A stretch of 26,173 nt of DNA, from the NCBI GenBank assembly GCA_044223505.1, contig JBGALX010000012.1:1-26173 (forward strand), given 5' to 3'. The position numbers and the translations under genes are program-made. Below are positions 1,830-26,173 of this stretch, one piece after another; position 1 is the stretch's first letter, and each line of letters begins with the position of its first letter. The notes beneath the pieces were generated by a model, which saw only the letters and a program-made list of their open reading frames with translations, did not search any database and was not told where the DNA came from. This DNA is from Myxococcaceae bacterium (GTDB lineage: Bacteria; Myxococcota; Myxococcia; Myxococcales; Myxococcaceae).

Positions 1830-3329
1830 ATGCGCCCACTCGTCATGCTCGCTGTGCTCGCCGCCGGCAGCGCCCACGCGTTCTGCGGCTTCTACGTCTC
1901 TGGAGCCGACCAGTCGCTCTTCAACAACGCCACCCAGGTCGTGATGATGCGCGAGGGCACCCGCACCGTGCTCTCGATGCAGAACAACTACCAGGGCCCG
2001 CCGTCGGACTTCGCGATGGTCATCCCCGTGCCCGTCGTTCTGCAGAAAGAGAACGTGAAGACGCTCAACAAGGCGGTCTTCGACAAGATCGACAAGCTCG
2101 CGGCGCCGCGCCTCGTCGAGTACTGGGAGCAGGACCCGTGCTGGAAGCCGAGCCCCGAGCGATACGACCGCTCGCCGGCGAAGCCCGCGCCGATGGCGAT
2201 GAAGGCCGCCGGGTCGGGCACCGGCTCGCTCGACTACGGCGTCACCATCGAGGCCCAGTTCAGCGTCGGCGAGTACGAGATCGTCATCCTCTCGGCGAAC
2301 GACGCGCTCGGCCTCGACCGCTGGCTCCGCGACAACAAGTACAAGATTCCCAGGGGCGCCGAGCCGCTGTTCAAGCCGTACATCAGCCAGGGGTGGAAGT
2401 TCTTCGTCGCCCGCGTCGACGCGAAGAAGGTGCAGTTCGTCGAGGGCCAGGCGGCGCTCTCGCCGCTGCGCTTCCACTACGACTCCGAGCAGTTCACGCT
2501 GCCGATTCGCCTCGGGCTGATCAACGCGAAGGACAAGCAGGACCTCATCGTTCACGTCATCGCGAAGAACCAGCGCTACGAGGTCGCGAACTACCCGAAC
2601 GTCACCATCCCCACGAACATCGACCTGCACGAGGGCTCGCGCAGCGAGTTCGGCGCGTTCTACGCGAGCCTGCTCGACCGCACGATCGCGAAGACTCCGA
2701 AGGCCGTCGTCACCGAGTACTCGTGGGCGTCGTCGAGCTGCGACCCGTGCCCGACGCCTCCGCTGCAGGAGGGCGACCTCATGGCGCTCGGCCTCGACGC
2801 GCTGAGCCCCGACCCGATGCCCGAGATCGAAGTGAAGAACGCCGAGCTGCTCAAGCCCGACGAGAAGCGCATCATCGACTCGATGATGAACAACGCGCGG
2901 CGAATGATCATGCAGCGCCGCGGCCTCAACGCCTACGGCTTCGTGCTCACCCGCCTGCACGCCCGCTACGACAAGGACTCGCTCGGCGAAGACCTCGTCT
3001 TCAAGGCCGCTCCGCCCATCGCCGGCGGCCGCGAGTTCCTCACCGACGGCCAGAAGCTCGAGCAGGGCGCCGTGCCCTACGGCACCAACAACTTCCAGGG
3101 CCGCTACGCCATTCGCCACCCGTGGAAGGGGCCCATCGCGTGCTCGAACCCGGTGCGCGGCCGCTGGGGCGGGCCTCCGGCCGGCGAGTCGCAGCAGCCC
3201 CCCGTCGCCGCCACCGGCACCGCGTTCGCGCCGCGCAAAGACGACATCACCGACCGCCTCGTCGAGAGCCCCGTCGCCGAGCTCGGCATCAAGGGGAAGA
3301 AAGAGCGCGCCGGCGTGCCGCTGAAGTAG
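1830..3329 (+). CDS. secreted protein, probably DUF2330 family
   Basis: ATG at 1830 is in frame with ORF 1455..3329. N-terminus MRPLVMLAVLAAGSAHA-FCGFYVSGADQ is a signal peptide followed by a conserved-looking CGFYV motif. GC3 is above 90% throughout. The 5' part of the track ORF (1455-1829) is low-complexity R/A-rich and rejected. Confidence 0.7.
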   Translation: MRPLVMLAVLAAGSAHAFCGFYVSGADQSLFNNATQVVMMREGTRTVLSMQNNYQGPPSDFAMVIPVPVVLQKENVKTLNKAVFDKIDKLAAPRLVEYWEQDPCWKPSPERYDRSPAKPAPMAMKAAGSGTGSLDYGVTIEAQFSVGEYEIVILSANDALGLDRWLRDNKYKIPRGAEPLFKPYISQGWKFFVARVDAKKVQFVEGQAALSPLRFHYDSEQFTLPIRLGLINAKDKQDLIVHVIAKNQRYEVANYPNVTIPTNIDLHEGSRSEFGAFYASLLDRTIAKTPKAVVTEYSWASSSCDPCPTPPLQEGDLMALGLDALSPDPMPEIEVKNAELLKPDEKRIIDSMMNNARRMIMQRRGLNAYGFVLTRLHARYDKDSLGEDLVFKAAPPIAGGREFLTDGQKLEQGAVPYGTNNFQGRYAIRHPWKGPIACSNPVRGRWGGPPAGESQQPPVAATGTAFAPRKDDITDRLVESPVAELGIKGKKERAGVPLK

Positions 3330-5160: not shown

Positions 5161-5913
5161 ATGAACGTCATCGTCGCGATCTGCGGCACGCTGCCGGCGC
5201 TGTTCCTCATGTGGTACGTCGAGAAGCACGACGCGAAGCGCCCCGAGCCGCGCTCGCTGCTCCGCAAGACGGCGCTGTTCGGCGGCCTCGCCACCATTCC
5301 CTGCATCGTGATTCAGGTCGCGCTGTCGGGCGGCGGCAAGATTGCTCCCGCGAACGCGGGCGAGGCGATGTTCACCGCGTACATCGTCGCGGGCCTCACC
5401 GAAGAGGGCGCGAAGGCCGCCTGCCTCTACCTCGCCGTGTGGAGACACCCCGCGTTCAACGAGCGCTTCGACGGCATCGTCTACGGCACCCGCGCGGGCC
5501 TCGGCTTCGCGCTCGTCGAGAACGTCGGCTACCTGCTCGGTGCCGAGAGCATGAGCGGCCTCATCAGCATGTTCATCTTGCGCGCCGTGCTCGCGGTGCC
5601 GGGCCACGCCATCTGGGGCGGCTTCATGGGCCACTACGCGGCGAAGAAGCGCTTCGACGGCACCGGCCCGGGACTGCTCGGAGGCCTCGCCATCGCCGTC
5701 TTTCTGCACGGCACCTACGACGCGGCGCTGTTCCTCGCTCCGTTCGCCGGAGCCGGCGCGCTGCTGCTCTTCCCGATTCCGCTCATCGTCATCATCGTGG
5801 GCTACCGCCGCCTGCGCGCGCACGCGGTGTGGGCGATCGCGAAAGACGACATCACGCACGCGCACCCGCCGATGCCGAAGCTGCCGCTCGGCATGGGCTT
5901 CGTCTTGCGCTGA
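5161..5913 (+). CDS. PrsW/CPBP-superfamily intramembrane metalloprotease (multi-pass membrane protein)
   Basis: ATG at 5161 is in frame with ORF 5128..5913. Motifs seen: LTEEGAKAACLY (EExxK), FALVENVGY, GHAIWGGFMGHY, FLHGTYDAALF (HxxYD). At least 6 hydrophobic helices. It is divergent from the phosphoesterase gene with only 32 bp between the start codons. Confidence 0.8.
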   Translation: MNVIVAICGTLPALFLMWYVEKHDAKRPEPRSLLRKTALFGGLATIPCIVIQVALSGGGKIAPANAGEAMFTAYIVAGLTEEGAKAACLYLAVWRHPAFNERFDGIVYGTRAGLGFALVENVGYLLGAESMSGLISMFILRAVLAVPGHAIWGGFMGHYAAKKRFDGTGPGLLGGLAIAVFLHGTYDAALFLAPFAGAGALLLFPIPLIVIIVGYRRLRAHAVWAIAKDDITHAHPPMPKLPLGMGFVLR

Positions 5914-6613: not shown

Positions 6614-7297
6614 TTAGCACACCCAGCGGAAACCGACGCCCCGCACCGTCTTCAGCTCGAAGCCCGCCTCGCCCTTCTTCACCGTGAGCTTCTTCTTCAG
6701 CGACGAGACGAAGTTGTCGACCGTGTGCAGGTCGACGACGACCTCGCCCCAGACGCGGTCGAGAATCTCGTCGCGGCTCAGCACCCGGCCGCCGCTCTCG
6801 AGCAGCATGACGAGCAGGTCGAACTCTTTGCGCGTGAGCTCGACGGGCCCGCTCGGGCCCGTCACGCTGCGCGTCGCGACGTCGACGCTGAACGGGCCGA
6901 AGCGGTGCTGCGTCGTCGCCGAGCCCTCGGCGGGCCCGCGGCGCACCAGCGCAGCGATGCGCGCATAGAGCTCGCGCAGGCGGTACGGCTTCGCGAGGTA
7001 GTCGTCGGCGCCGGCGTCGAAGCCGCGCACCAGGTCTTCTTCGAGGCTGCGCGCCGTGAGCATCAGCACGCGGGCCGGCAGCTTCTTCTCACGCAGCCGC
7101 TTGCAGAACGCGTAGCCGTCGCCGTCGGGCAGCATGAGGTCGAGCACCACGACGTCGGTCGGCGCGCTCTCGAGCGCCTTCCACCCCTCGGCGACCGAGG
7201 CCGCGGTGCGCACGGCGTAGCCCTGCTCCTTCAGGTTGTCCTCGAGCGTCAGGCGCAGGTTCGCGTCGTCTTCGACGATGAGGACGGAGGAGGCCAT
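6614..7297 (-). CDS. OmpR/PhoB-family response regulator (receiver plus winged-helix)
   Basis: LIVEDD...VVLDLMLPDGDG...LTARSLEEDLVRGFDAGADDYLAKPY forms the receiver domain. The C-terminal Trans_reg_C-like region reads ...LTRKEFDLLVMLL...RDEILDRVWG... Confidence 0.9.
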   Translation of the reverse strand: MASSVLIVEDDANLRLTLEDNLKEQGYAVRTAASVAEGWKALESAPTDVVVLDLMLPDGDGYAFCKRLREKKLPARVLMLTARSLEEDLVRGFDAGADDYLAKPYRLRELYARIAALVRRGPAEGSATTQHRFGPFSVDVATRSVTGPSGPVELTRKEFDLLVMLLESGGRVLSRDEILDRVWGEVVVDLHTVDNFVSSLKKKLTVKKGEAGFELKTVRGVGFRWVC

Positions 7298-7319
7298 GCA
7301 CCTGCAGTTGTATCGGAGT

Positions 7320-7358
7320 CCCCTCTCCCCTCGTAGGGGAGAGGGACAGGGTGAGGGG
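7320..7358 (+). repeat. REP-like GC-rich palindromic element, copy A (CCCCTCTCCCCTCGTAGGGGAGAGGGACAGGGTGAGGGG)
   Basis: An 11-bp stem (CCCTCTCCCCT/AGGGGAGAGGG, loop CGT) followed by GGGTGAGGGG. It lies 22 nt upstream of the response-regulator ATG (on the minus transcript). It is identical to copy B over 39 nt except for 1 mismatch. Confidence 0.6.
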
Positions 7359-7394
7359 CGACAGCGGGCGGTTCGCTCATGCGTTCAGCTTCTC

Positions 7395-12360: not shown

Positions 12361-14058
12361 CGTTCTTCGGAACGTGACAGCGAAGGTCGTGCCGTCGGGA
12401 CTCGAGCGCTCGATGGCGATGCTGCCGCCGTGCATCGCCATGACGCGACGGCACAGCGCGAGGCCCAGGCCCGTGCCTGCGCGCGGTACGGCTTTGAGCC
12501 GCACGAAGTCTTCGAACACGCGCTCGTGCTCGCTGTCGGGAATGCCGACGCCGTTGTCGCTGACGCGAAGCGTGGCGGTGGCGGCGTCGTAGCTGAAGCG
12601 CACCTCGACCGGGTCGCGCACGTTGTAGCGGCACGCGTTGCGCAAGAGGTTCAGCAGGCAGAGCTTCAAGAGCTCGGCGTCGGCCTCGAGCACGGCGCTC
12701 TCGAAGCCCTCGAACGTGAGCTTCGCCTTCGGCGCGTCGTCTTCGAGCACGCGCACGAGCGACGCGAGCGGCACGTGCGAGCGCTGCGGCTCGAGCCGGC
12801 CCTTGTCGAGCCGGTTGAACGACAGGATGTTCTCGACCAGCGCCGTGAGCCCGTCGACCTCGGCGACGAGGCGCTGCGGGTAGTCCTTCGCCTGCGCGTT
12901 GCCCTCGAGGCGCGTCTCGAGCGTCTCGGCCATCACCCGCATCGACGCGAGCGGAGTCTTCAGCTCGTGGCTCACCGCCGCCACGAAGTCCTCCTTCATC
13001 TCGACGAAGCGCTGCTTGCGCCGCTGCGTGACGTGCACGAGGCCGGCGGCGAGCAGGCCGAGCGCTCCGACGAGGCCGAGCAGGCCGGCCTTGAGGCGGA
13101 AGAGGGCGCGGGCGCGGGAGACGGCGGCCTCCCAGTCGGCCGGCTCGACGAGGCCGAGCGCGCTCATCTGGTCGCGCACCTCGGCGCGCTCACGCCCCAG
13201 GTCGACGCGCAGCCCGCGCACGAGGTTGCCCTCGCGCTCGGCGTACCAGCCCTCGAGCTGCGAGGGCCCTTCCGGCAGCGCGTCGACGTCGGGGAGCTGT
13301 GCGTCGCTCACGGGCTCTTCCGCGCAGCGCGCCTCGAAGTCGTCGGCGGGCACCTGCGCGTGGCGCGAGAGCAGCGCGACGCGCGCGCACAGCCTCGCGA
13401 GCGTCTCGGGCGGCAGCTGGGTGCGCCCGCGCAGGAGCCTTCGCTGCAGCCCGTCTTGCCCCTGAAAGCCGTCGCGCATCAGGCCGCGCAGCAGCGCCGG
13501 GTTGCCGCGCGGGAGCAGCAGCTCGACCACCTGCGTGACGGCCTCGGCGTCGTGCTCGACCGGAGTGCGCCAGCGCGCCCGGTGCGCGAGCAGGCCCCGC
13601 ACCGCGCGCTCGAGCTCGGCGTCCGTCTTGGCGTCGCGCACCGCCTTCACGAACGGCAGCTCGCTGGCCTCGTCGTCTTCCGCGAGCGCGCCGGAGATGG
13701 GCTGCGCGGGCGAAGGGGGCAGCACGCGCACGCCGTCGCTGATCAGCAGCGTGCCCTCGGCGTCGATGAGCGGGTCCTTCGCGGCGGCGTCGATGCGGGG
13801 CAGGGCGGCCGCGAGGGCGTCGTGCAAGCGGCGCTGCAGCGCGGTGGCCGCGTACTGCTCGAGCGCGCGGCGGCGCCCGTCGATCTCTTCGAGGGCGTCG
13901 TCGCGTTCGCGGGCGAAGACCCGGGCCAGGCCTCCGAGGAAGAGGAGGAGGACCGCCGCGACGGCCGCGAGCGCCCCGAATGCGCGCCCCCTCTCCCCTC
14001 GTAGGGGAGAGGGACGGGGTGAGGGGGCCTGCCGGCGCTCTTCGGCCCTCTGCCTCAC
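12343..14058 (-). CDS. sensor histidine kinase (two TM helices, about 270-aa periplasmic domain, HisKA plus HATPase_c)
   Basis: H-box FVAAVSHELKTPL. N, G1 and G2 boxes: NLLRNACRYN, DNGVGIP, GTGLGLALC. GTG start at 14058 is 1 nt after the VWA gene stop (translational coupling). Residues about 11-24 are encoded by repeat copy B. Confidence 0.85.
   Translation of the reverse strand: MRQRAEERRQAPSPRPSPLRGERGRAFGALAAVAAVLLLFLGGLARVFARERDDALEEIDGRRRALEQYAATALQRRLHDALAAALPRIDAAAKDPLIDAEGTLLISDGVRVLPPSPAQPISGALAEDDEASELPFVKAVRDAKTDAELERAVRGLLAHRARWRTPVEHDAEAVTQVVELLLPRGNPALLRGLMRDGFQGQDGLQRRLLRGRTQLPPETLARLCARVALLSRHAQVPADDFEARCAEEPVSDAQLPDVDALPEGPSQLEGWYAEREGNLVRGLRVDLGRERAEVRDQMSALGLVEPADWEAAVSRARALFRLKAGLLGLVGALGLLAAGLVHVTQRRKQRFVEMKEDFVAAVSHELKTPLASMRVMAETLETRLEGNAQAKDYPQRLVAEVDGLTALVENILSFNRLDKGRLEPQRSHVPLASLVRVLEDDAPKAKLTFEGFESAVLEADAELLKLCLLNLLRNACRYNVRDPVEVRFSYDAATATLRVSDNGVGIPDSEHERVFEDFVRLKAVPRAGTGLGLALCRRVMAMHGGSIAIERSSPDGTTFAVTFRRTSPLPS
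13987..14026 (+). repeat. REP-like element copy B (CCCCTCTCCCCTCGTAGGGGAGAGGGACGGGGTGAGGGGG)
   Basis: One mismatch to copy A over 39 nt. It lies within the first 24 codons of the HK ORF, just downstream of the VWA stop. Confidence 0.6.
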
Positions 14059-18670: not shown

Positions 18671-19552
18671 CTATTCCTGCGCCCAGCCGGTGATGGGCTG
18701 CGGCGCTGTGCTGGTGCCGCCGAAGTAGAAGCCGGCGGCCCACTTGAGGCTGCTCGTCGAGCTCGAGCAGCGTCGGGGGAAGGTGGCGCTGACGTCGAGC
18801 GCTCGCGGGCCGACCGTTCCGGTGACGTGGAAGCGGTACTCGGTCGTCGTGATGGTGAGCTCGTACTGCAGCGGGACCTCGGCGCGCAGCTCGCTCTCGT
18901 CGAGCGTGAAGAGCCCCGCCGCCGGGTACAGGTGCGTGCCGCCGTTGTTCGCGTACTGCGCGACCTCGAGCACCGGAGGCGTGAGGTCGGGCCGCCAGCG
19001 CCAGCCGAACATCAGCCCGTCGGCCGAGAGGTCGAGCTGCCCGCAGTCCGAGAGGCCGGGCAGCTTGTTCCAGTCGAGCTGGTCGTCGGGCTGCACCGGG
19101 TTCGTGAGCACGTACATCGCGCTCGCGTCGAAGATGAACCGGTAGGTTCGCGCGCTCACCGTCACGAGGCCCGCGAGCGGCAGCCGCGCCGCGCCGTTCT
19201 GCGTGACGGTCGCCGCGTGAGCCCCGACAGAGAGCGTGTACTTCGCCCAGCCAGGGTGGCCCGGGACCGAGGTGCCGGCGTCGGTGACGGTGCCGGCGTC
19301 GAGGCCTGCGTCGGTGACGGTGCCGGCGTCGAGGCCCGCGTCGGTGACGGTGCCGGCGTCGAAGCCTGCGTCGTTCACCGGCTCGGCGCCCGCATCCGTG
19401 CCCGCATCGTCGTGGGCGTCGCGGCCCGCGTCTGCGAGCACCGCGCCTGAGTCGAGCGCCGGCGCAGCGGCACCGGCGTCGGGAGCGCCCGGGCTGCCGC
19501 ACGCGGCCGCCATCAGGGTCCCCGCGAGCATCGCCGTCGCCGAGCGCTTCAT
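18671..19552 (-). CDS. lipoprotein with D-A-G-(T/L) repeat linker and an unknown C-terminal domain
   Basis: The ATG at 19552 is residue 34 of ORF 18671..19651: MKRSATAMLAGTLMAAACGS (lipobox). Linker DAGFDAGTVTDAGLDAGTVTDAGLDAGTVTDAG. A hairpin CCGCT-CAGA-AGCGG follows the stop. Confidence 0.7.
   Translation of the reverse strand: MKRSATAMLAGTLMAAACGSPGAPDAGAAAPALDSGAVLADAGRDAHDDAGTDAGAEPVNDAGFDAGTVTDAGLDAGTVTDAGLDAGTVTDAGTSVPGHPGWAKYTLSVGAHAATVTQNGAARLPLAGLVTVSARTYRFIFDASAMYVLTNPVQPDDQLDWNKLPGLSDCGQLDLSADGLMFGWRWRPDLTPPVLEVAQYANNGGTHLYPAAGLFTLDESELRAEVPLQYELTITTTEYRFHVTGTVGPRALDVSATFPRRCSSSTSSLKWAAGFYFGGTSTAPQPITGWAQE
19271..19380. repeat. 30-bp tandem repeat (about 3.5 copies of CGGTGACGGTGCCGGCGTCGAGGCCTGCGT) inside the lipoprotein CDS
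   Basis: Direct tandem copies visible at 19281-19370 with 1-2 substitutions per copy. They encode (DAGTVTDAGL) three times. The repeat is in frame, so copy-number change would alter linker length only. Confidence 0.7.
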
Positions 19553-19676
19553 CGAGACGCGGTTTACGACGCAAACCTCTGCGAAATCAATTCGAGGCGA
19601 CCGTTCAGGCGGCGTCTGCGACCGCTCGCGGCGAACTTGGGGGGCGCCCATCGCAGCCGAGCGTCATCCTCGCGGC

Positions 19677-20672
19677 ATGCGCAAACTGAAGGTGGTGGCC
19701 CTGGTGATCGCGGCGCGGCTCGTCTGCTGCTCGACGCTCGCGACGGTCGACGACTCGAGCTCGCGCTTCGCCAACGTGATGAGCGAGCTGAGGTCGACGA
19801 CGCCGGGAGACGGGCTCATCGCGGCGGAGTGGTACCTCGTCTCGCTGTCGATGGCGGGCATCGCTGCGAAGAACCTGGGGCGGCCCGACGAGCTGCGCTG
19901 GCTCACGCGCCGCGCGCTCGACGCCGACGTGCGGGCGTTCGACACGCGCGCGTGGAAGAGCGACGCGCTGCTGACGCTCGATGGGGCAGAAGGGCACGCG
20001 GGCTATCTCGGGCACGTGGGGCTGCTGCTCGCGCTCGAGTGCAGCCCCGAGAACGTCGCGGTGCGGCAGCGGGTGCTCGGCGCGCTGGCCCGGCGGTACG
20101 CGGCGGCGCCCGACGCGTTGCTCGAGACGTACCCGGGCATGAAGTGGATTCCAGACAACGCGGTGACGCTGGCCGCCGTCGCCGAGGGAGCGCGCTGCGA
20201 CGGCCGCGACGTGCCCACGCGAGCGTGGCTCGAGCGCTGGCCGCGAGACGCGAAGACGGGGCTGCTCGAGTTCACTCCGCGCAGTGGGCCGCGGGCTTCG
20301 GGGGCCGGCTGGAACTCGTACTACCTGTACCGGGTCGACGCAGCGGTGGCGCGCGCGCAGTACGAGGCGGCCGAGCGCGTGTTTCTCTTCGACGCGGTGC
20401 CCGGGCTCGCGGCCTGGCGGGAGTACCCGGCCGGCGTGAAGGGCTCGGGCGACGTCGACTCCGGGCCGCTGGTGTTCGGGCTGTCGCCGTCGGGCACCGG
20501 CTTCGCGCTCGCGGGCGCGACGCTGTACGGCTCGAAGGCGCGGGGCGGCATGCTGCGCACGGCCGAGGCCGCCGGCGTCACGGTGCCTTGGGGCGGGCTG
20601 CACTACCTGCTGTCGCCGCTCGTGGGGCAGGCCGCGGTGCTGGCGGCCAAGACGCTGGCGCAAGGCGCGTGA
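19677..20672 (+). CDS. hypothetical protein with N-terminal signal or anchor (MRKLKVVALVIAARLVCCSTLA)
   Basis: The ATG at 19677 is residue 148 of ORF 19236..20672; the upstream part is the antisense of the DAG repeats. High GC3, notably G-ending. No domain recognised. Confidence 0.65.
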   Translation: MRKLKVVALVIAARLVCCSTLATVDDSSSRFANVMSELRSTTPGDGLIAAEWYLVSLSMAGIAAKNLGRPDELRWLTRRALDADVRAFDTRAWKSDALLTLDGAEGHAGYLGHVGLLLALECSPENVAVRQRVLGALARRYAAAPDALLETYPGMKWIPDNAVTLAAVAEGARCDGRDVPTRAWLERWPRDAKTGLLEFTPRSGPRASGAGWNSYYLYRVDAAVARAQYEAAERVFLFDAVPGLAAWREYPAGVKGSGDVDSGPLVFGLSPSGTGFALAGATLYGSKARGGMLRTAEAAGVTVPWGGLHYLLSPLVGQAAVLAAKTLAQGA

Positions 20673-20761
20673 CCTGCGGCGCAGATTCTCATCTCCAGAG
20701 AAGTGCGGCGCGGTCGCGCAGCGCTGTTCGACTGTGAGCCAGAGTGTCCCGACTCAGAGCG

Positions 20762-21592
20762 TCACTGTTCGTTGAGAGGACAGCTCGATGGATCCGGGAG
20801 GAGACTCCCCTGGGTGGTGGTGAGCAGGTGAGCAGGTGAGGTGGTGACCGGGCTCCGCAGGCTCGCGGCGGGAGAAGAAATTCTTCCACCGCCCTGAGCC
20901 TTCGAGCCCCCGGTGAGCAGGTGACGCGGTGAGGTCACCAGGGGTCGAATGAGCGTCGACTGAGAGTCGCATCGCGCGGCAGCGGCCATCGAGCCCCCGG
21001 TGAGCAGGTGACGCGGTGAGCAGGTCACCAGGGGTCGAATGAGCGTCGGCTGAGAGTCGCATGGCGCGGCAGCGGCCATCGAGCCCCCGGTGAGCAGGTG
21101 ACGCGGTGAGCAGGTCACCAGGGGTCGAATGAGCGTCGGCTGAGAGTCGCATCGCGCGGCAGCGGCCATCGAGCCCCCGGTGAGCTGGTGACGCGGTGAG
21201 CAGGTCACCAGGGGTCGAACGAGCGTCGGCTGAGAGTCGCATTGCGCGGCAGCGGCCATCGAGCCCCCGGTGAGCAGGTGACGCGGTGAGCGGGTGACTG
21301 GGGCTCTGCGTAGCTCGGGGGTTCGAGAAGAGAGTCTTCCACGGCTTGGATCCTCTCCCCGGGGTTGTGTCAGGGAGCTCGTCTCATCACCCGTGCCGGT
21401 ACAACCACACCTCCGCGGGTTCGAGGCGAGGAACATCACGGCGCCCTTGCAGTGCAGCGGAATCGCGCGGCACCTGCGCCGCCGCTTGAACTCACGCACC
21501 ACTACCAGAAGGCAGCCGGAACACGTTCCCCGAGTGCGGCACGGCGAGAAGTCGCCGCTCTCCGGGTCCACCGTGAGGATCCGGAACTTCAC
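20762..21592 (-). CDS. questionable ORF: GTG-initiated Cys-rich N-terminal segment of about 60 aa that continues without a stop through the 90-bp array
   Basis: GC3 is about 88% over the first 57 codons (VKFRILTVDPESGDFSPCRTRGTCSGCLLVVVREFKRRRRCRAIPLHCKGAVMFLASNPRR), then falls to about 55-80%. Both alternative frames hit stops within 12-17 codons after codon 60. All 5 inter-copy substitutions in the array are nonsynonymous in this frame. Confidence 0.2.
   Translation of the reverse strand: MKFRILTVDPESGDFSPCRTRGTCSGCLLVVVREFKRRRRCRAIPLHCKGAVMFLASNPRRCGCTGTGDETSSLTQPRGEDPSRGRLSSRTPELRRAPVTRSPRHLLTGGSMAAAAQCDSQPTLVRPLVTCSPRHQLTGGSMAAAARCDSQPTLIRPLVTCSPRHLLTGGSMAAAAPCDSQPTLIRPLVTCSPRHLLTGGSMAAAARCDSQSTLIRPLVTSPRHLLTGGSKAQGGGRISSPAASLRSPVTTSPAHLLTTTQGSLLPDPSSCPLNEQ
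20904..21300. repeat. 90-bp tandem array, about 4.4 copies (87, 90, 90, 90 and about 40 bp); unit GAGCCCCCGGTGAGCAGGTGACGCGGTGAGCAGGTCACCAGGGGTCGAATGAGCGTCGGCTGAGAGTCGCATCGCGCGGCAGCGGCCATC
   Basis: Unit starts at 20904, 20991, 21081, 21171 and 21261. Five substitutions and one 3-bp indel separate the copies. Each unit holds the internal dyad GGTGAC-N11-GTCACC and a direct 11-mer GGTGAGCAGGT occurring twice. All three plus-strand frames contain stops in every unit. Confidence 0.85.
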
Positions 21593-21798
21593 CGGCCCGC
21601 CCCGCCGGCAGTCGCAGCACCACCGGCCGTCGAACCTCCCGCAACTGTCCCGCTAGCGCTCGCGCGCCAGCAGCGACAGTGCCCGAGTCGCCCAGAACGC
21701 AGAGCGCGAGCAACACCCACGCATTTCGCACGCGCGCGAGCTGTACGAGCCGCGCCCTCGCCCACGCGGGGTCAGGGGCCACAGCCCCCTCTCACACC

Positions 21799-22941
21799 TC
21801 AGACCACGACGGCGTCGTAGCTGAACAGGTGCGGGTGACCATCGAGGCTGTACGGGTTCAGCCGCGCGTCGTTCTTCGGAATCACGGCGCCGGCGCCGTC
21901 ACGCCACTCCTCGACGCGGCGGCCGCTCAAGCCGGCGGGCGCGTTCATCGGCGGCAGGTCGAGCTTCGGCAGCTGCACGCGCACGTTGCGGACCATGGCG
22001 CCGATGGGGTCGAAGACCTGCACCCAAACGCTCGTGGCTCCGTCGAACAGCGTCGGCTCGGCGAACGCGCGCTGGCTCCCGCCGTTGCCGTCGATGACGG
22101 CCTCCTGGTTGAAGCGCCCGTCACCGGCCGTCGCCACGCTCTTCACGAACACCTTGTAGCCGACGGGCGCCTCGACGTTGATGGCCCGCTCGGCGACGTC
22201 GGGGTTCCACCGGTAGTGCCGGCCGTCGTCGGGGTACGACCGCCCCGTGTGGAAGCCGATGCGCGTGTCGACCGAGACCTTCACTCCGCTCACGTCGACG
22301 ATGCTGCGCTTCTGCACGTTCGGCGGCAGCACCCCCACCACCTTCTCCGTGTAGAGGTCGTCGTGGAACATCGCCTGAAGCTGCTCGAGCTGCGCCTTCG
22401 TCTGGCCCGTGAACGCGCCGACGTTCGCCGGCGACAGCGCCCACTGAATGTCCTCGCGCGAGATGGTCGTCGCGTCGGCGTCGGAGTTCTTCACCAGCTG
22501 AACGCGCTGCGCCGCCAGCCGCAGCTCGGGCGTCGCGAGCGGCGCGATGGGCAGCGTCGTCACCGCGGGGCTCGTCAGCGTGCGCTCGAGCTTGTACGCG
22601 AGCGTCTCGAGCGGAGCGAGCGCCGCCGGCGTCGCGTCGGGAATCTCGAACAGCTTGTGCACCGCCGGCACCGCGGCCGCCTCGTTCGGGAACAGCACCG
22701 CCCGGTTCGCCGGCTTGTCGAGGCGGTCGAGCTCGTACAGCTTCAGCACTCCGTCGACCGCCGTCGCGCCCGGCAGCGAGCCCACCGGGTCGAGCACCTC
22801 GTCGCCGCGCTTCGCCGCGGTCAGCGTGTCGCCGCCGATGCCGAGCCTGGCCAGGTTCTGCAGGTTGCGGTCGGACACGTAGAACTTCGACGCGTCGCGG
22901 TGCGGGGAAACGGGAGCGTTGCCTCGAACGGTCGTGGTCAT
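21799..22941 (-). CDS. hypothetical protein (no signal peptide, no domain recognised)
   Basis: The ATG at 22941 is residue 17 of ORF 21799..22989 (start alternatives 22941 or 22989). It overlaps spurious plus and minus ORFs with low-complexity translations. Confidence 0.6.
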   Translation of the reverse strand: MTTTVRGNAPVSPHRDASKFYVSDRNLQNLARLGIGGDTLTAAKRGDEVLDPVGSLPGATAVDGVLKLYELDRLDKPANRAVLFPNEAAAVPAVHKLFEIPDATPAALAPLETLAYKLERTLTSPAVTTLPIAPLATPELRLAAQRVQLVKNSDADATTISREDIQWALSPANVGAFTGQTKAQLEQLQAMFHDDLYTEKVVGVLPPNVQKRSIVDVSGVKVSVDTRIGFHTGRSYPDDGRHYRWNPDVAERAINVEAPVGYKVFVKSVATAGDGRFNQEAVIDGNGGSQRAFAEPTLFDGATSVWVQVFDPIGAMVRNVRVQLPKLDLPPMNAPAGLSGRRVEEWRDGAGAVIPKNDARLNPYSLDGHPHLFSYDAVVV

Positions 22942-22994
22942 GCGGGAGTTTTCGCGCCGGGCGACCGCCGCTCCCGCGAATCGCCCCAAAGTGG

Positions 22995-23004
22995 GACATA
23001 TGTC
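22995..23004. promoter_or_regulatory. perfect 10-bp palindrome GACATATGTC (AT-centred) 55-65 bp upstream of the 22941 start
   Basis: Read directly from the sequence. An AT-containing perfect dyad is unusual in this GC background, so it is a candidate operator site. Confidence 0.25.
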
Positions 23005-23095
23005 TCAGAGGCGAACGACGACGCCCAGCGTGCCCGCTCAGCGCGAGCGCGCCCGCGACGTCGCTTTCCGGCTCACCGGTTTCACGCGCGCTCTC

Positions 23096-24193
23096 TCAGG
23101 GCGCGGGGCTGACCACCCCGTCGAGCACCGCCGGCTTCGCGCTCACGATGCGAATGCGCCCCGGCGCGCCGCCACCGCCACCGCCCGCACCGTTGCCGTT
23201 CGGGGCCGCGACCGCCGCGCCCTGCAGCGAGCCGCCGCTGCCGCCGACCGTCGAGCCGCAGTCGGCCGAGAGCCCACCGCGCGCCGGCGCCGCCGCGAGC
23301 GTGCCGTCTTCCCCCGGCAGGCCGTCGGAGCTGAAGCCGCCGCACGCCGTCGTGCCGCTGCCGCCGCCGCCGCCGTTCGCCGCGAGCACGCCGCGCACCT
23401 GCACCTCGTTCGCCTGCAGGAAGATGGCGCCGCCCGAGCCGCCGCCGCTGCCCGCTGCGGCCGTGTTGCAGATTTTTCCGCCGGTGCCGCCGCCTCCGCC
23501 CGCGTTGACGCCGCCGCTGTCGCCGACGCGAATCGCTCCGGCGGCGAAGAGCTGCACCGCGCCTCCGCCCGCGCCGCCCGGCTGCGGAGCGCAGAGGCGG
23601 AAGCCCCCGACGCCGCCCTTCGAGCCGCCGCTCAACACGCTGAGCTCGGCGTCGCCGTAGGTCGCGCCGCCCTGGCCGTTCGCTCCCGAGGCGTTGCTGC
23701 CCGCGGCGCCCGCCGCCGAGTGACCCGCACCTCCGCCGCCCGCCGACTCGTCGGTCGCGAGCCCGTCGGAGCCCGCGCCGCGGTTCGTGGCCGCTCCCGC
23801 GCCGGGGACGTCGCGCTTGCCGGAGGCGTCGAGCACTCCGCCGAGCTCGATGTCGGTCGCCGCGACGACGACGAGCGGGCGCGTGCCGATGACTCGCACC
23901 GCGCTGCCCGCAGCCACGGTGAGCCCGCGCACGTGCAGCACCGCGAGCTCGGGCCCGAACGGCTCGTGCGGCCGCACGTCGAAGGTCACGCCTGAAGGCA
24001 GCGCCATGCCGCGAACCTCGGGCACCGTCGTGTCGACGACCACCGTGCCGAGCGACAAGTCTGCCGTGCCCGCGAACTGCGCGTCGACCGGCAGGTGCGG
24101 CACCGCGATGCTCCCGCCGAGGCGAGAGAGCGACTCCCAGTCGAGGCAGCCCGTCAGCAGCAGCGCCGCGGCCATGAACTCTCGCGCCCTCAT
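23096..24193 (-). CDS. glycine-rich lipoprotein (possible beta-helix or Gly-rich repeat protein)
   Basis: The ATG at 24193 is residue 19 of ORF 23096..24247: MRAREFMAAALLLTGC (lipobox). It has long GGxGGxG runs. The overlapping 646-aa ORF 23082..25022 is an R/G low-complexity artefact. Confidence 0.65.
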   Translation of the reverse strand: MRAREFMAAALLLTGCLDWESLSRLGGSIAVPHLPVDAQFAGTADLSLGTVVVDTTVPEVRGMALPSGVTFDVRPHEPFGPELAVLHVRGLTVAAGSAVRVIGTRPLVVVAATDIELGGVLDASGKRDVPGAGAATNRGAGSDGLATDESAGGGGAGHSAAGAAGSNASGANGQGGATYGDAELSVLSGGSKGGVGGFRLCAPQPGGAGGGAVQLFAAGAIRVGDSGGVNAGGGGGTGGKICNTAAAGSGGGSGGAIFLQANEVQVRGVLAANGGGGGSGTTACGGFSSDGLPGEDGTLAAAPARGGLSADCGSTVGGSGGSLQGAAVAAPNGNGAGGGGGGAPGRIRIVSAKPAVLDGVVSPAP

Positions 24194-24255
24194 CGCGGCC
24201 CTCTCGATGAGCATCGCCGCGAGTGCACAGGCGGCGCAGTGTGCCACGCCGGCTC
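24171..24255. repeat. copy 1 of a duplicated 85-bp segment (88% identical to 25179-25263)
   Basis: On the plus strand it would read MNSRALIAALSMSIAASAQAAQCATP, a signal-peptide-like sequence. Here it overlaps the start and upstream region of the minus-strand lipoprotein gene. Confidence 0.5.
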
Positions 24256-24871
24256 AGAGGAGCGCGAACTTCATCGCGCGCTGAAAGTCGCGCACGCTCA
24301 TGCTCTCTTCGTCGATGGAGGGGTCCTCCATGCGGCGCGGCGAGTTCGCGTAGACGGTGCCCGGCGGGTCCCCGTGCACGCCCCACGGGTTGCGCAGAAA
24401 CACGCGGTCGCCCTCGACGCGCGTCACCACGACGGCGTGCAGGTCGCCGCCCTTCGGCGACGCCCACTTCATCAGCACCAGCGTCTGGCCCGACGACTTC
24501 GCCGCGGTGAGCGCCGCGCTCGCGTCTTTGCGCAGCTTGAAGTCGCCGCCGAACAGCGCCTTCAGGCCGCGGCGCATCTGGTTGCCGCCGAGCCCGCTGT
24601 GCCCGAGCGGGAGCTTCAGGCCGAACAGGCTGACGGCGCTCCGGTCGCTGCGGTTGCTGTAGACCAGCCCTTCGTTCGCGTACTCGAGCAGCGCGGACTG
24701 GAAGACCCGCTCGCTCGCGGTGCGGTCGCCCCGCCCGTCGGGAGGAATCGAGTCGGGCACGCGGCGCAAGAGCTGCCCGCTGCGCAGCTTCACCTCGCCC
24801 GTCGGGCTGAACAGGCCGCCCATCAGTCGCACGTACTCGGCCGGGTTCGACCGGCACAGCATGTACTGCAT
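24254..24871 (-). CDS. papain-like (C39-like fold) cysteine peptidase domain protein; probably 5'-truncated in this annotation, with a likely frameshifted extension to about 25013
   Basis: C-terminal KWASPKGGDLHAVVVTRVEGDRVFLRNPWG matches the His/Asn region of papain-fold peptidases. The Gln-x5-Cys pair (QSDHNTC) lies just upstream of the annotated ATG, in frame but behind an in-frame TGA. GC3 is 100% over the 28 codons between that TGA and the ATG. Confidence 0.55.
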   Translation of the reverse strand: MQYMLCRSNPAEYVRLMGGLFSPTGEVKLRSGQLLRRVPDSIPPDGRGDRTASERVFQSALLEYANEGLVYSNRSDRSAVSLFGLKLPLGHSGLGGNQMRRGLKALFGGDFKLRKDASAALTAAKSSGQTLVLMKWASPKGGDLHAVVVTRVEGDRVFLRNPWGVHGDPPGTVYANSPRRMEDPSIDEESMSVRDFQRAMKFALL

Positions 24872-25062
24872 GCTCGTCGTCGTGCAGGTGTTGTGGTCCG
24901 ACTGGTCGACCTGGCCGGGCTGGCCCGCCTCCTCGGCGACGCCGGTGATCCCGGGTCTGCGGCTTCGTCACGGGCCCGGCTCGCGTCGCGCCGCGCACCC
25001 GGCTGATCGTCATCGCGCGCAAGGTACTTTGATTACACCGTAAACCTCAAGGGCGGCGCCGC

Positions 25063-25110
25063 CTCGAGGGTGGGGGGCGGGAGGGGGGCGCCGGCCCCTC
25101 ACCCCCTCGG
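25063..25110. repeat. GC-rich imperfect palindrome CGAGGGTGGGGGGCGGGAGGGGGGCGCCGGCCCCTCACCCCCTCG sharing the GGGTGAGGGG/CCCCTCACCCC arm with the REP-like family
   Basis: Outer arms CGAGGG(G)GTGAGGGG and CCCCTCACCCCCTCG are complementary. It lies 70-120 nt upstream of the 25182 ATG, next to an AT-richer stretch (25021-25052) that could serve as the promoter of the minus-strand peptidase gene. Confidence 0.35.
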
Positions 25111-25178
25111 GTCGATGGCTCCCAACCGCCCGTTCTTACGAGCGTCCGAGCCGGGCGTAGGCCTTGCTCAACGGAGCC

Positions 25179-25263
25179 GCCATGACCCGTCTCGCCCTCA
25201 TCGCGGCCCTCTCGATGAGCTTCGCCGCGCGTGCCCAGGCGCCGCAGTGTGCCATGCCGACGA
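25179..25263. repeat. copy 2 of the duplicated 85-bp segment; here it encodes the genuine signal peptide of the 25182 gene
   Basis: ATGACCCGTCTCGCCCTCATCGCGGCCCTCTCGATGAGCTTCGCCGCGCGTGCCCAGGCGCCGCAGTGTGCCATGCCG aligns to 24174-24251 with about 10 mismatches. Confidence 0.5.
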
Positions 25264-26173
25264 CGACGCCCACGGTCGACGCGAAAGACCGCATCAGCCC
25301 CACGCGCGTGCTGCGCCGCGTGACGCTCGCGCTCACCGGCACGACGCCGAGCGCCGCGCAGTACGAGGCCCTCGTCGCTGCGCCCGACGACGCCGCGAAG
25401 GAGGCGCTGATCAACCAGGCGATCGACGACGCGCTCGCGAGCCCGAAGTTCTACGAGCGCATGCTGCACTTCGGTCACGAGTGGCTCGCCATCGGCGCGT
25501 ACAGCACGGGCGCGCAGGGCGACGCGTACCAGGGCGACATGTCGGGCCACCTCTTCACGTGCGGCGGCGGCACGACGCACGCGGGCAAGCTCTACGGCAA
25601 CTGGGAGACGAACGTCTGCGGCGACGGCGCGGCGACGGTCACGATGCACGAGCCGTGGTGGGCGCCGGGCACGATGGTCGCGGTGGTCGGCGGCGCGGGC
25701 TCGAACGTGCGGCAGGTGCCCGGGATGAACGGCACGATGAAGGACTGCGGGCTCGCCGAGGGCGGCTACTACGACCCGTCGCTCGAGGCCGGCTGCGGCT
25801 GCGGCCCGAACCTCGTGTGGTGCTCGCCGCTGCAGGGCCTGCAGGCCGGCAGCAACCACGACCTCATCACCGGCCAGCGCCGGCACCCGTACGAAGAGCC
25901 GGCGCGGCTGTTCGCGCACCTCGCGTGGCACGACCGGCCGCTGTCGGACCTCGTCACGGCGAACTACTCGGTCGGCACGAACTGGCTGCGCGCGCTCTAC
26001 GTGCGGCAGGGGCGGCAGCAGGGCAGCAGCGCGCTCGACGCGAACACGACGTGGTGGAAGGCGGGGGCCGACGCCTCGCCGCGCGACCCGCTGCACCCGA
26101 CTCCGAACGACCCGCAGGCGTGGCGCGAGTTCGTGGTCGAAGACCTGAACCCGTTCTTCCTCGCGTCGCGCAC
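25182..26173 (+). CDS. secreted protein, 5' partial in window (continues beyond 26173); unknown function, Cys- and Trp-rich
   Basis: ATG at 25182. Signal peptide MTRLALIAALSMSFAARAQA. GC3 above 90% to the end of the window. Motifs HEPWWAPG and CGCGPNLVWC. The antisense 349-aa ORF 25047..26096 is rejected. Confidence 0.7.
   Translation, partial: MTRLALIAALSMSFAARAQAPQCAMPTTTPTVDAKDRISPTRVLRRVTLALTGTTPSAAQYEALVAAPDDAAKEALINQAIDDALASPKFYERMLHFGHEWLAIGAYSTGAQGDAYQGDMSGHLFTCGGGTTHAGKLYGNWETNVCGDGAATVTMHEPWWAPGTMVAVVGGAGSNVRQVPGMNGTMKDCGLAEGGYYDPSLEAGCGCGPNLVWCSPLQGLQAGSNHDLITGQRRHPYEEPARLFAHLAWHDRPLSDLVTANYSVGTNWLRALYVRQGRQQGSSALDANTTWWKAGADASPRDPLHPTPNDPQAWREFVVEDLNPFFLASR

Follow-up and report, generated by a model that had tools for sequence, protein, structure and literature searches.

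The intergenic island between two convergent genes in a 26,173-nt stretch of Myxococcaceae DNA (contig JBGALX010000012.1 of assembly GCA_044223505.1, hereafter the window) carries a tandem array of 90-bp units at positions 20898-21295. What lies there is non-coding tandem DNA built around a palindromic core; it recurs at several loci, evolves in concert and comes without partner genes. With somewhat better than even confidence, we regard it as an extragenic hairpin minisatellite and as a member of a small, lineage-restricted family of the Myxococcota, similar in kind to the BOX, MIRU and REP elements. The family appears to be undescribed, and the kind of element is well known; a literature search found no paper containing the octamer strings discussed below, and searches for myxobacterial extragenic repeats gave only general literature.

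Tandem Repeats Finder delimited the plus-strand array at 20898-21295 with a period of 90, 4.5 copies, 96% matches, 0 indels and a score of 726, in good agreement with an earlier reading made from the letters alone (the sequence-only reading), which had seen 4.4 near-identical 90-bp units at 20904-21300. A second repeat search of the window recovered the 90-nt register together with an 8-nt periodicity nested inside the array. Units abut head to tail and are 96% identical over the whole 90 nt; unit 1 is short by 3 nt, and the last unit runs into a module flanking the array on the right. Each 90-bp unit contains the inverted repeat GGTGAC-N11-GTCACC, and the 11-mer GGTGAGCAGGT twice, and both features, as well as the nesting of the inverted repeat in C and G runs, had been recognized correctly before. 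The inverted repeat sits within TCGA-G-CCCC-C-GGTGA...TCACC-A-GGGG-TCGA, for example at 20989-21038, and the resulting core hairpins, all on the plus strand, lie at 20902-20948 in unit 1 (a short variant, TCGA-CCCC-GGTGA...TCACC-GGGG-TCGA), at 20989-21038 in unit 2, at 21079-21128 in unit 3 and at 21169-21218 in unit 4, with a GGTGA-N5-TCACC motif at 21015-21029, 21105-21119 and 21195-21209 in the latter three, respectively.

On either side of the array stands a copy of a terminal module, here called the T-module; the two copies are direct repeats, and each ends in a GAAGA-N3-TCTTC palindrome. The left T-module (20819-20889, plus strand) consists of the octamers GGTGAGCA GGTGAGCA GGTGAGGT GGTGACC, followed by GGGCTCCGC and GAGAAGAAATTCTTCCAC; its degenerate octamer run at 20819-20849 was recovered by pattern matching, and it aligns with the right T-module as well as with a locus of a related genome (L045, see below). 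The right T-module (21269-21342, plus strand) is composed of four direct octamers, the last of which (GGTGACT) is uninverted, then GGGGCTCTGCG and GAGAAGAGAGTCTTCCAC; the palindrome of this side is GAAGAGAGTCTTC. Together, the two flanks of the array align over ~85 nt, comprising the four direct octamers, GGGCTCYGC and then GAGAAGAnnnTCTTCCAC, which fits the earlier suggestion that the array is an expansion inside a pre-existing module. The flanking palindromes and the degenerate partial unit named in that suggestion were likewise found: GAAGAAATTCTTC lies at 20874-20886 and GAAGAGAGTCTTC at 21327-21339, and the extended pattern GAAGANNNTCTTCCAC has exactly these two sites in the window, compared with 0.02 expected. 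Around GAAGAAATTCTTC, an extended hairpin GGCGG-GA-GAAGA-AAT-TCTTC-CA-CCGCC (20867-20893) folds as single-stranded DNA (ssDNA) with -8.6 kcal/mol (z = -3.45). When the window was searched for the octamer pattern GGTGANNNGGTGANNNGGTGANNNGGTSACC with up to two mismatches, all 5 matches fell inside the island, and 100 shuffles gave 0.

Related arrays were found by scanning a degenerate octamer pattern over the GTDB representative genomes, which gave at least 117 loci. Three loci among the matches listed belong to Myxococcaceae bacterium MAG-72 (GCA_016793725.1), the closest genome compared. Locus L005 of MAG-72 has a period of 79 and 4.8 copies and is ~70% identical to the window array over 214 nt; L071 has a period of 87 and at least 2.9 copies, the array being cut by the contig end; L045 is a pure octamer run (period 8, 10.8 copies) accompanied by a T-module with GAGAAGTTCTTCTC. 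A more specific, family-specific pattern applied to the JGI metagenomes returned 19 matches, of which one is a real member and the others are coding-sequence coincidences. This member, L126, lies on contig Ga0268299_1000089 (357 kb) and has a period of 90 and 4.7 copies. Its unit is closely matched to the window unit over the first 57 nt (TTCGA-CCCCC-octamers-GGTCACC-GGGGG-TCGAATGAGCG) and nearly unrelated to it over the other 33 nt. The arrays compared thus come from at least five loci in three genomes, the source genome being represented by the window.

When nhmmer was run with a model made from the units at L005, L071 and the window, it found full-length units only at these three loci (E-values of 1e-12 to 1e-20) and the core alone in L126 (1e-5; the 57-nt core is common to both) and in L045; in the other 110-odd loci among the matches listed, only the octamer part was recognized. 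Five pattern matches on viral contigs were single sites, three of which nhmmer matched over the searched motif only and two of which it did not report, and the array had no match in plasmid and phage collections. The sequence-only reading had reckoned with the array turning out to be an ordinary dispersed repeat present in hundreds of copies. What was found is a multi-locus family at unrelated sites in related genomes, as such a repeat would be, with a handful of loci and not hundreds.

All array loci are intergenic, and all units in every array are direct. The loci compared show no synteny and no common flanking genes, their neighbors being as unrelated as a Ser/Thr kinase, a glycogen synthase, a sigma-54 activator, a DUF4419 protein and a methyltransferase. 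Convergent genes flank the arrays of the window and L126, and those of the window, L126 and L005 lie downstream of the 3' end of a same-strand gene. Identity amounts to 95-96% within arrays but only 64-74% between arrays, including the two arrays inside MAG-72 (74%), and we therefore conclude that the arrays undergo concerted evolution. As a separate observation, the DUF4419 gene downstream of the L005 array (1502-2984) is split over two overlapping open reading frames (ORFs; Pfam positions 1-124 and 152-303), which reflects either a frameshift or an assembly error.

Comparing the arrays, the unit of ~80-90 nt was resolved into a linker that diverges fast and a conserved half, in which 8-nt microrepeats (GGTSACCN) follow one another. 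The sole element present in every array is GGTGA-N5-TCACC, which arises where a forward octamer (GGTGAnnn) meets a reverse octamer (GGTCACC) head to head, GGTGACC being the reverse complement of GGTCACC. There are 3-5 copies of it per full array, one or two in L045 and L071, and none in the remainder of the window, in two further loci (L119, a MAG-72 stretch, and L120) and in one M. xanthus locus, ~88 kb together. The other octamers are three forward and one reverse in the window; reverse, forward, forward and reverse in L126; two or three in L005; and one forward and three reverse in L071. At the array edges of the window and L045 stands a related T-module of direct octamers plus a palindrome of the GAGAAG/CTTCTC type, on both sides in the window and once in L045, and L126 and L005 have a TTCTCG-N5-CGAGAA hairpin on one side only. 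In all, small palindromes with GAGAA/TTCTC arms adjoin four of the five arrays and occur almost nowhere else in the DNA examined.

C5...G5 and TCGA...TCGA enclose the core of the arrays in the window and in L126 and give it a long stem; in L005 and L071 there are G-runs on both sides, the left of which pairs with an upstream C-run, and the outer stem is absent. Because of this difference, the RNAalifold consensus keeps only the 7-bp GGTGAC/GTCACC stem, with 0 compensatory changes in 7 pairs of the family alignment and a covariation term of +0.31. Folded as ssDNA, the core hairpins were more stable than shuffled sequences (z = -2.75, -4.45, and -3.0; the first value refers to unit 2, with -12.5 kcal/mol). 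For whole 90-nt units folded as RNA, z was only about -1.3 to -1.4. In each of the five arrays, the plus strand gave a more stable fold than the minus strand.

Octamer arrays of the GGTGAC type, such as (GGTGACAA)n, (GGTGACCG)n and (GGTGAAGG)n, were also seen in Chloroflexota, Planctomycetota, Streptomyces, Longimicrobium, Acidobacteriota and Myxococcota (for example at L075 ~2920-3060, at L077 ~7250-7380, and in L008, L013 and L010). Among the matches listed, 31 of 117 loci have an inverted partner array of TCACC octamers no more than 150 nt away, giving long octamer hairpins of the form (GGTGACNN)n / (NNGTCACC)n, and several metagenome-assembled genomes carry 3-4 separate octamer loci each. 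The scan pattern forced GGTGA, and the counts refer to octamers of this type. For these arrays across phyla neither an Rfam family nor a paper was found. A broader proposal, in which the conserved GGTGA-N5-TCACC core would be a platform for a myxobacterial DNA- or RNA-binding protein and the octamer hairpins would form a widespread undescribed repeat class with a common mechanism, strikes us, judging by the sequences, as quite improbable.

The array is non-coding, as the sequence-only reading had held. Across it the plus-strand frames contain 9, 5, and 9 stops and two minus frames stay open, again as noted before. While genuine genes of this window (GC content 71%) have a third-position GC of at least 0.9, the three codon phases of the array differ little (0.65-0.78). 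An ORF of 276 aa on the minus strand over the array is present in databases as a called hypothetical protein (P0008, 269 aa), and it might be argued that it encodes a real protein of 30-residue repeats: two minus frames are open, the entry exists, and GC is slightly raised at one codon phase (0.75-0.78 vs. 0.65-0.68). We consider this idea effectively refuted. A search of 5.8 billion proteins yielded no match except P0008 itself, and a full HMMER scan of 1.84 billion representatives added only two, the long eukaryotic proteins P0009 and P0010, whose unrelated 30-aa repeat makes these matches a periodicity artefact; neither search gave a bacterial homologue. No Pfam domain was detected in the 276-aa ORF, the residue composition is implausible, and the homology to conserved repeat proteins that had been named as an argument for coding did not materialize. 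Moreover, the periods in the family are 79, 87, and 90 nt, with one 91-nt unit in one array, and therefore no reading frame is conserved across it; the 79- and 91-nt periods disrupt any frame.

The sequence-only reading had offered three candidates for the array, and the minisatellite fits best. In the mechanism that we propose, octamer slippage and quasi-palindrome flips would have built the core. Slipped-strand mispairing, unequal exchange or gene conversion would then have multiplied the higher-order unit and kept its copies alike, as the pattern of identities suggests, and units would have reached new intergenic sites only rarely. The block itself may be neutral or may act via its structure. 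Since arrays lie 3' of same-strand genes or between convergent genes, read-through RNA would carry a series of hairpins, and RNA reading through from the upstream gene would contain five or six stable G+C hairpins together with TGA stops in all three frames. In enterobacteria, REP elements act as a barrier to 3' exonucleases and read-through; by analogy with REP/BIME elements, the hairpins described here could block 3' exonucleases and limit convergent read-through.

Several points weigh against this interpretation. Among the matches listed, the family amounts to five loci in three genomes, with the source genome contributing this window. Unit number is close to five in three independent arrays (4.5, 4.7, and 4.8), and the L045 array is antisense to its flanking genes. 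No U-tract follows the hairpins, so that they are not canonical terminators. Finally, a strictly conserved 15-bp palindrome with half-sites one helical turn apart would suit a dimeric DNA-binding protein equally well.

Such a protein is the starting point of a DNA-level alternative, according to which every unit would provide one GGTGA-N5-TCACC operator and the approximately five sites per array would form a nucleoid-organizing, centromere-like or decoy array, with the GAGAAG/CTTCTC palindromes as a second site (GGTGAGCAGGTCACC and GAGAAGAAATTCTTC are the candidate binding sequences). The 15-bp palindrome is indeed the only strictly conserved element across arrays whose linkers diverge, the centers of its half-sites are 10 bp apart, it is missing from ~88 kb of surrounding myxobacterial DNA, three arrays are alike in unit count, and palindromes with GAGAA/TTCTC arms adjoin four of five arrays. 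We nevertheless regard a binding platform as unlikely, as Pfam scans revealed neither a candidate binding protein nor a par or rep gene nearby, spacings of 79, 87, and 90 bp put the units out of helical phase, octamers flank the core in freely varying number and orientation, and slippage alone predicts a palindrome from self-complementary microrepeats. If the sequence instead worked as RNA, the locus could specify several small RNAs (sRNAs) or one long RNA with about five hairpins displaying GGUGA, for example a CsrB-like protein sponge or tandem paralogues like Pxr in Cystobacter. Tandem sRNA paralogues are known in myxobacteria (PMC5568312), and L005, like pxr, immediately follows a sigma-54 activator gene; the greater stability of the plus strand in five of five arrays points in the same direction, but is expected for any G- and U-rich strand. 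Rfam gave no match even at E up to 10, the family alignment lacks any compensatory pair, the outer stem of the window and L126 is replaced by flanking G-runs in L005 and L071, and RNA folds of whole units hardly exceed their shuffles. Scans of the island for sigma-70 promoters and intrinsic terminators found nothing, and matches resembling sigma-54 promoters were weak by eye. In addition, the context of pxr (nla19 and an NADH dehydrogenase gene; 108 nt), as described in PMC5568312, is matched by 0 of the 5 loci. The structured small-RNA candidate of the sequence-only reading, in either form, is thus quite doubtful.

A third possibility, which we rate lower still, is that the block 20796-21346 is a composite mobile element similar to a MITE (miniature inverted-repeat transposable element), built of T-module, units and T-module, whose insertion would have duplicated TGGATCC. 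This 7-mer adjoins the block on both sides, at 20789-20795 and 21347-21353, where it is a speculative target-site duplication and possibly a chance match, and a small palindrome, GGGAG-GAGA-CTCCC (20796-20809), which is paired in the fold, marks the left edge. Homologous T-modules bracket the block, members of the family occupy unrelated loci, and the architecture recalls the pneumococcal BOX elements with their A-B(n)-C arrangement. On the other hand, the two T-modules are direct and not inverted, terminal inverted-repeat similarity is weak (~9/14 by eye), coincidence of a 7-mer between two short flanks is not rare, and no transposase was identified. MAG-72 differs by 7 kb at this place and so offers no empty site for comparison, and its arrays are only 74% alike, which speaks against recent transposition.

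Should the hairpin minisatellite be the right reading, it would add one more lineage-specific extragenic repeat family and a marker for strain typing as a variable number tandem repeat (VNTR). It would also illustrate a path from an 8-nt self-complementary microrepeat via a palindrome and a higher-order unit to a homogenized array. For annotation the array is a warning, as it was called as a 269-aa hypothetical protein and a short-read assembly broke in it. Its importance would rise if a protein were to bind the 15-bp palindrome, or if the arrays were to shape transcript ends in organisms without canonical U-tract terminators.

The island is framed by an upstream gene at 19677-20672 (plus strand, 331 aa, signal-peptide-like N-terminus, no Pfam domain), the 3' end of which faces it, and by a downstream gene, P0001, at 21799-22941 (minus strand, 380 aa, no Pfam domain), which is convergent with the former. 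It is this 331-aa gene, and not the 478-aa ORF, that constitutes the upstream gene. In MAG-72, the orthologues (86% amino acid identity for the upstream gene, at L119 18314-19300, and 74% protein identity for the downstream gene) are 7.2 kb apart, with five genes between them. The only part of this 7.2-kb segment recognizable in the window is a fragment of ~120 nt at 21397-21520 (minus strand), homologous to the MAG-72 intergenic stretch L119 ~12440-12555 (blastn 78% over 55 nt, E = 5e-5). The ORFs differ and share no common frame; from its sequence, the fragment may represent an RNA, a small regulatory element or what is still recognizable of a lost gene. It overlaps a probable decayed coding remnant at 21380-21782 on the minus strand, where third-position GC periodicity changes frame, no intact conserved ORF is left and Pfam gave no match. 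A signal-peptide-like ORF start at 21782 (...RNAWVLLALCVLG..., minus strand) suggests that this was probably a small secreted-protein gene. We infer that the right third of the island is gene-decay debris and that the array block occupies the scar of an indel or rearrangement. The description of 20673-21798 as a gene-free island holds with two qualifications: P0008 is called over the array, though it has no real homologue, and 21380-21700 keeps third-position GC periodicity without an intact ORF, which makes it look like a decayed remnant and not like plain spacer.

Ordinary chromosomal DNA makes up the rest of the window, with genes for a PrsW protease, a two-component system and VWA, HYR and CarboxypepD_reg proteins. 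In Pfam scans, none of the window ORFs came up as a plasmid or phage gene, as a transposase or reverse-transcriptase gene, or as cas, rep or par. No tRNA or tmRNA was found in the window, and nothing in its GC-skew profile resembled an origin or terminus switch. P0008 and the upstream protein, looked up as exact sequences, gave no match. The one other contig of this strain, a Logan short-read contig of run SRR28480386 (L118, SRR28480386_65844), matches window positions 21264-26173 with 100% identity and ends, at its position 5452, at window position 21264 inside the last array unit; tandem repeats stop short-read assemblies in this way.

Two further repeats were observed in the window. At 19274-19388, a 30-nt (10-codon) tandem repeat with 3.3 copies and 94% identity falls in the overlap of the long ORFs 18671-19651 (minus strand) and 19236-20672 (plus strand); the minus-strand ORF has a weak match to the Pfam family "Decapeptide repeat" (E = 0.0075, below threshold). 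An 84-nt segment occurs at 24168-24251 and again, ~1 kb apart, at 25176-25259 with 88% identity, in neighboring ORFs without Pfam domains that are probably tandem paralogous genes; the orthologous region of MAG-72 aligns to both copies.

The array was also compared with known systems. A CRISPR array was rejected, as it had been in the sequence-only reading, because the units are contiguous without unique spacers and Pfam scans of the window ORFs found no cas genes. The iteron or centromere (parS-like) candidate proposed there was dropped as well, since the window contains no replication, partition, plasmid or phage genes and the array matched no plasmid or phage collection. Rfam gave no match in the window at gathering score (one chance match in the island had E = 7) and no relevant match in L005, L071 or L045; the sequence-only reading had likewise matched the array to no known element class. 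Repetitive DNA between ops and tps of M. xanthus was reportedly described by Fujitani, Komano and Inouye in 1991 in J Bacteriol; the M. xanthus ops-tps locus, reached via protein S, contained no tandem array and no match to the family model at E up to 10, and so lends no support to its being the same element. The sRNA Pxr is encoded between nla19 and an NADH dehydrogenase gene, has a length of 108 nt and adopts a conserved three-stem fold, as stated in PMC5568312. Its tandem paralogues in Cystobacter resemble the present arrays as tandem, hairpin-rich non-coding units of ~100 nt in myxobacteria, and L005 follows a sigma-54 activator gene. The arrays, however, lie at unrelated loci without a conserved fold or an Rfam match, and Pxr was rejected on the flanking context, which differs in five of five arrays, and on the missing Rfam match.

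Among the tandem repeat classes, BOX elements of Streptococcus pneumoniae are arranged as boxA - boxB(n) - boxC, with units of 45 nt and more than 100 loci. Their terminal modules around variable tandem internal units recall the window array, in which T-modules stand on both sides, and less so L045 with one T-module or L126 and L005 with a hairpin on one side; like the arrays, they form hairpins, occupy many intergenic loci and are non-coding. The two show no sequence relation; units here measure 79-90 nt and are made of 8-nt microrepeats, the terminal modules are direct copies, and a handful of loci have been seen. MIRUs lie inside operons in one orientation, with small ORFs overlapping neighboring genes. 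The MIRU/VNTR loci of Mycobacterium tuberculosis share with the arrays 40-100-bp units, short intergenic tandem arrays, a high-GC genome and homogenization per array, and in MAG-72 a single genome does carry such units at more than one intergenic locus (L005, L071, and L045). Small ORFs coupled to flanking genes were not found here, given the 79- and 91-nt periods, the plus frames closed by TGA and the two convergent settings; a further contrast to MIRUs is that a palindrome dominates the unit, that two of the arrays have convergent neighbors and that the periods are no multiples of 3. The GGGAATC heptamers of Xanthomonas and GGGGAYT heptamers of Nostoc, which sometimes form inverted pairs capable of stem-loops and vary in length between strains (PMC4692102), are G-rich intergenic tandem repeats of 7-8 nt, and the octamer runs and L045 are of this type; here, however, the microrepeat is nested in a 79-90-nt unit that is itself tandemly repeated.

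REPs are 20-40 nt long and linked to RAYT transposases; a genome has more than 100 of them, and within BIMEs their orientation alternates. The arrays differ in their direct units, which show no alternating orientation, in their apparently low copy number and in having no Y1/RAYT gene in the array loci examined. Nevertheless, they contain short, G+C-rich, imperfect extragenic palindromes (z = -2.75 to -4.45, at intergenic loci throughout), and, like REP/BIME elements, such palindromes are often clustered and often located at gene 3' ends. REP is known to stabilize upstream mRNA and to bind proteins (PMC2817692), and it is with REP/BIME elements that we favor a functional analogy.

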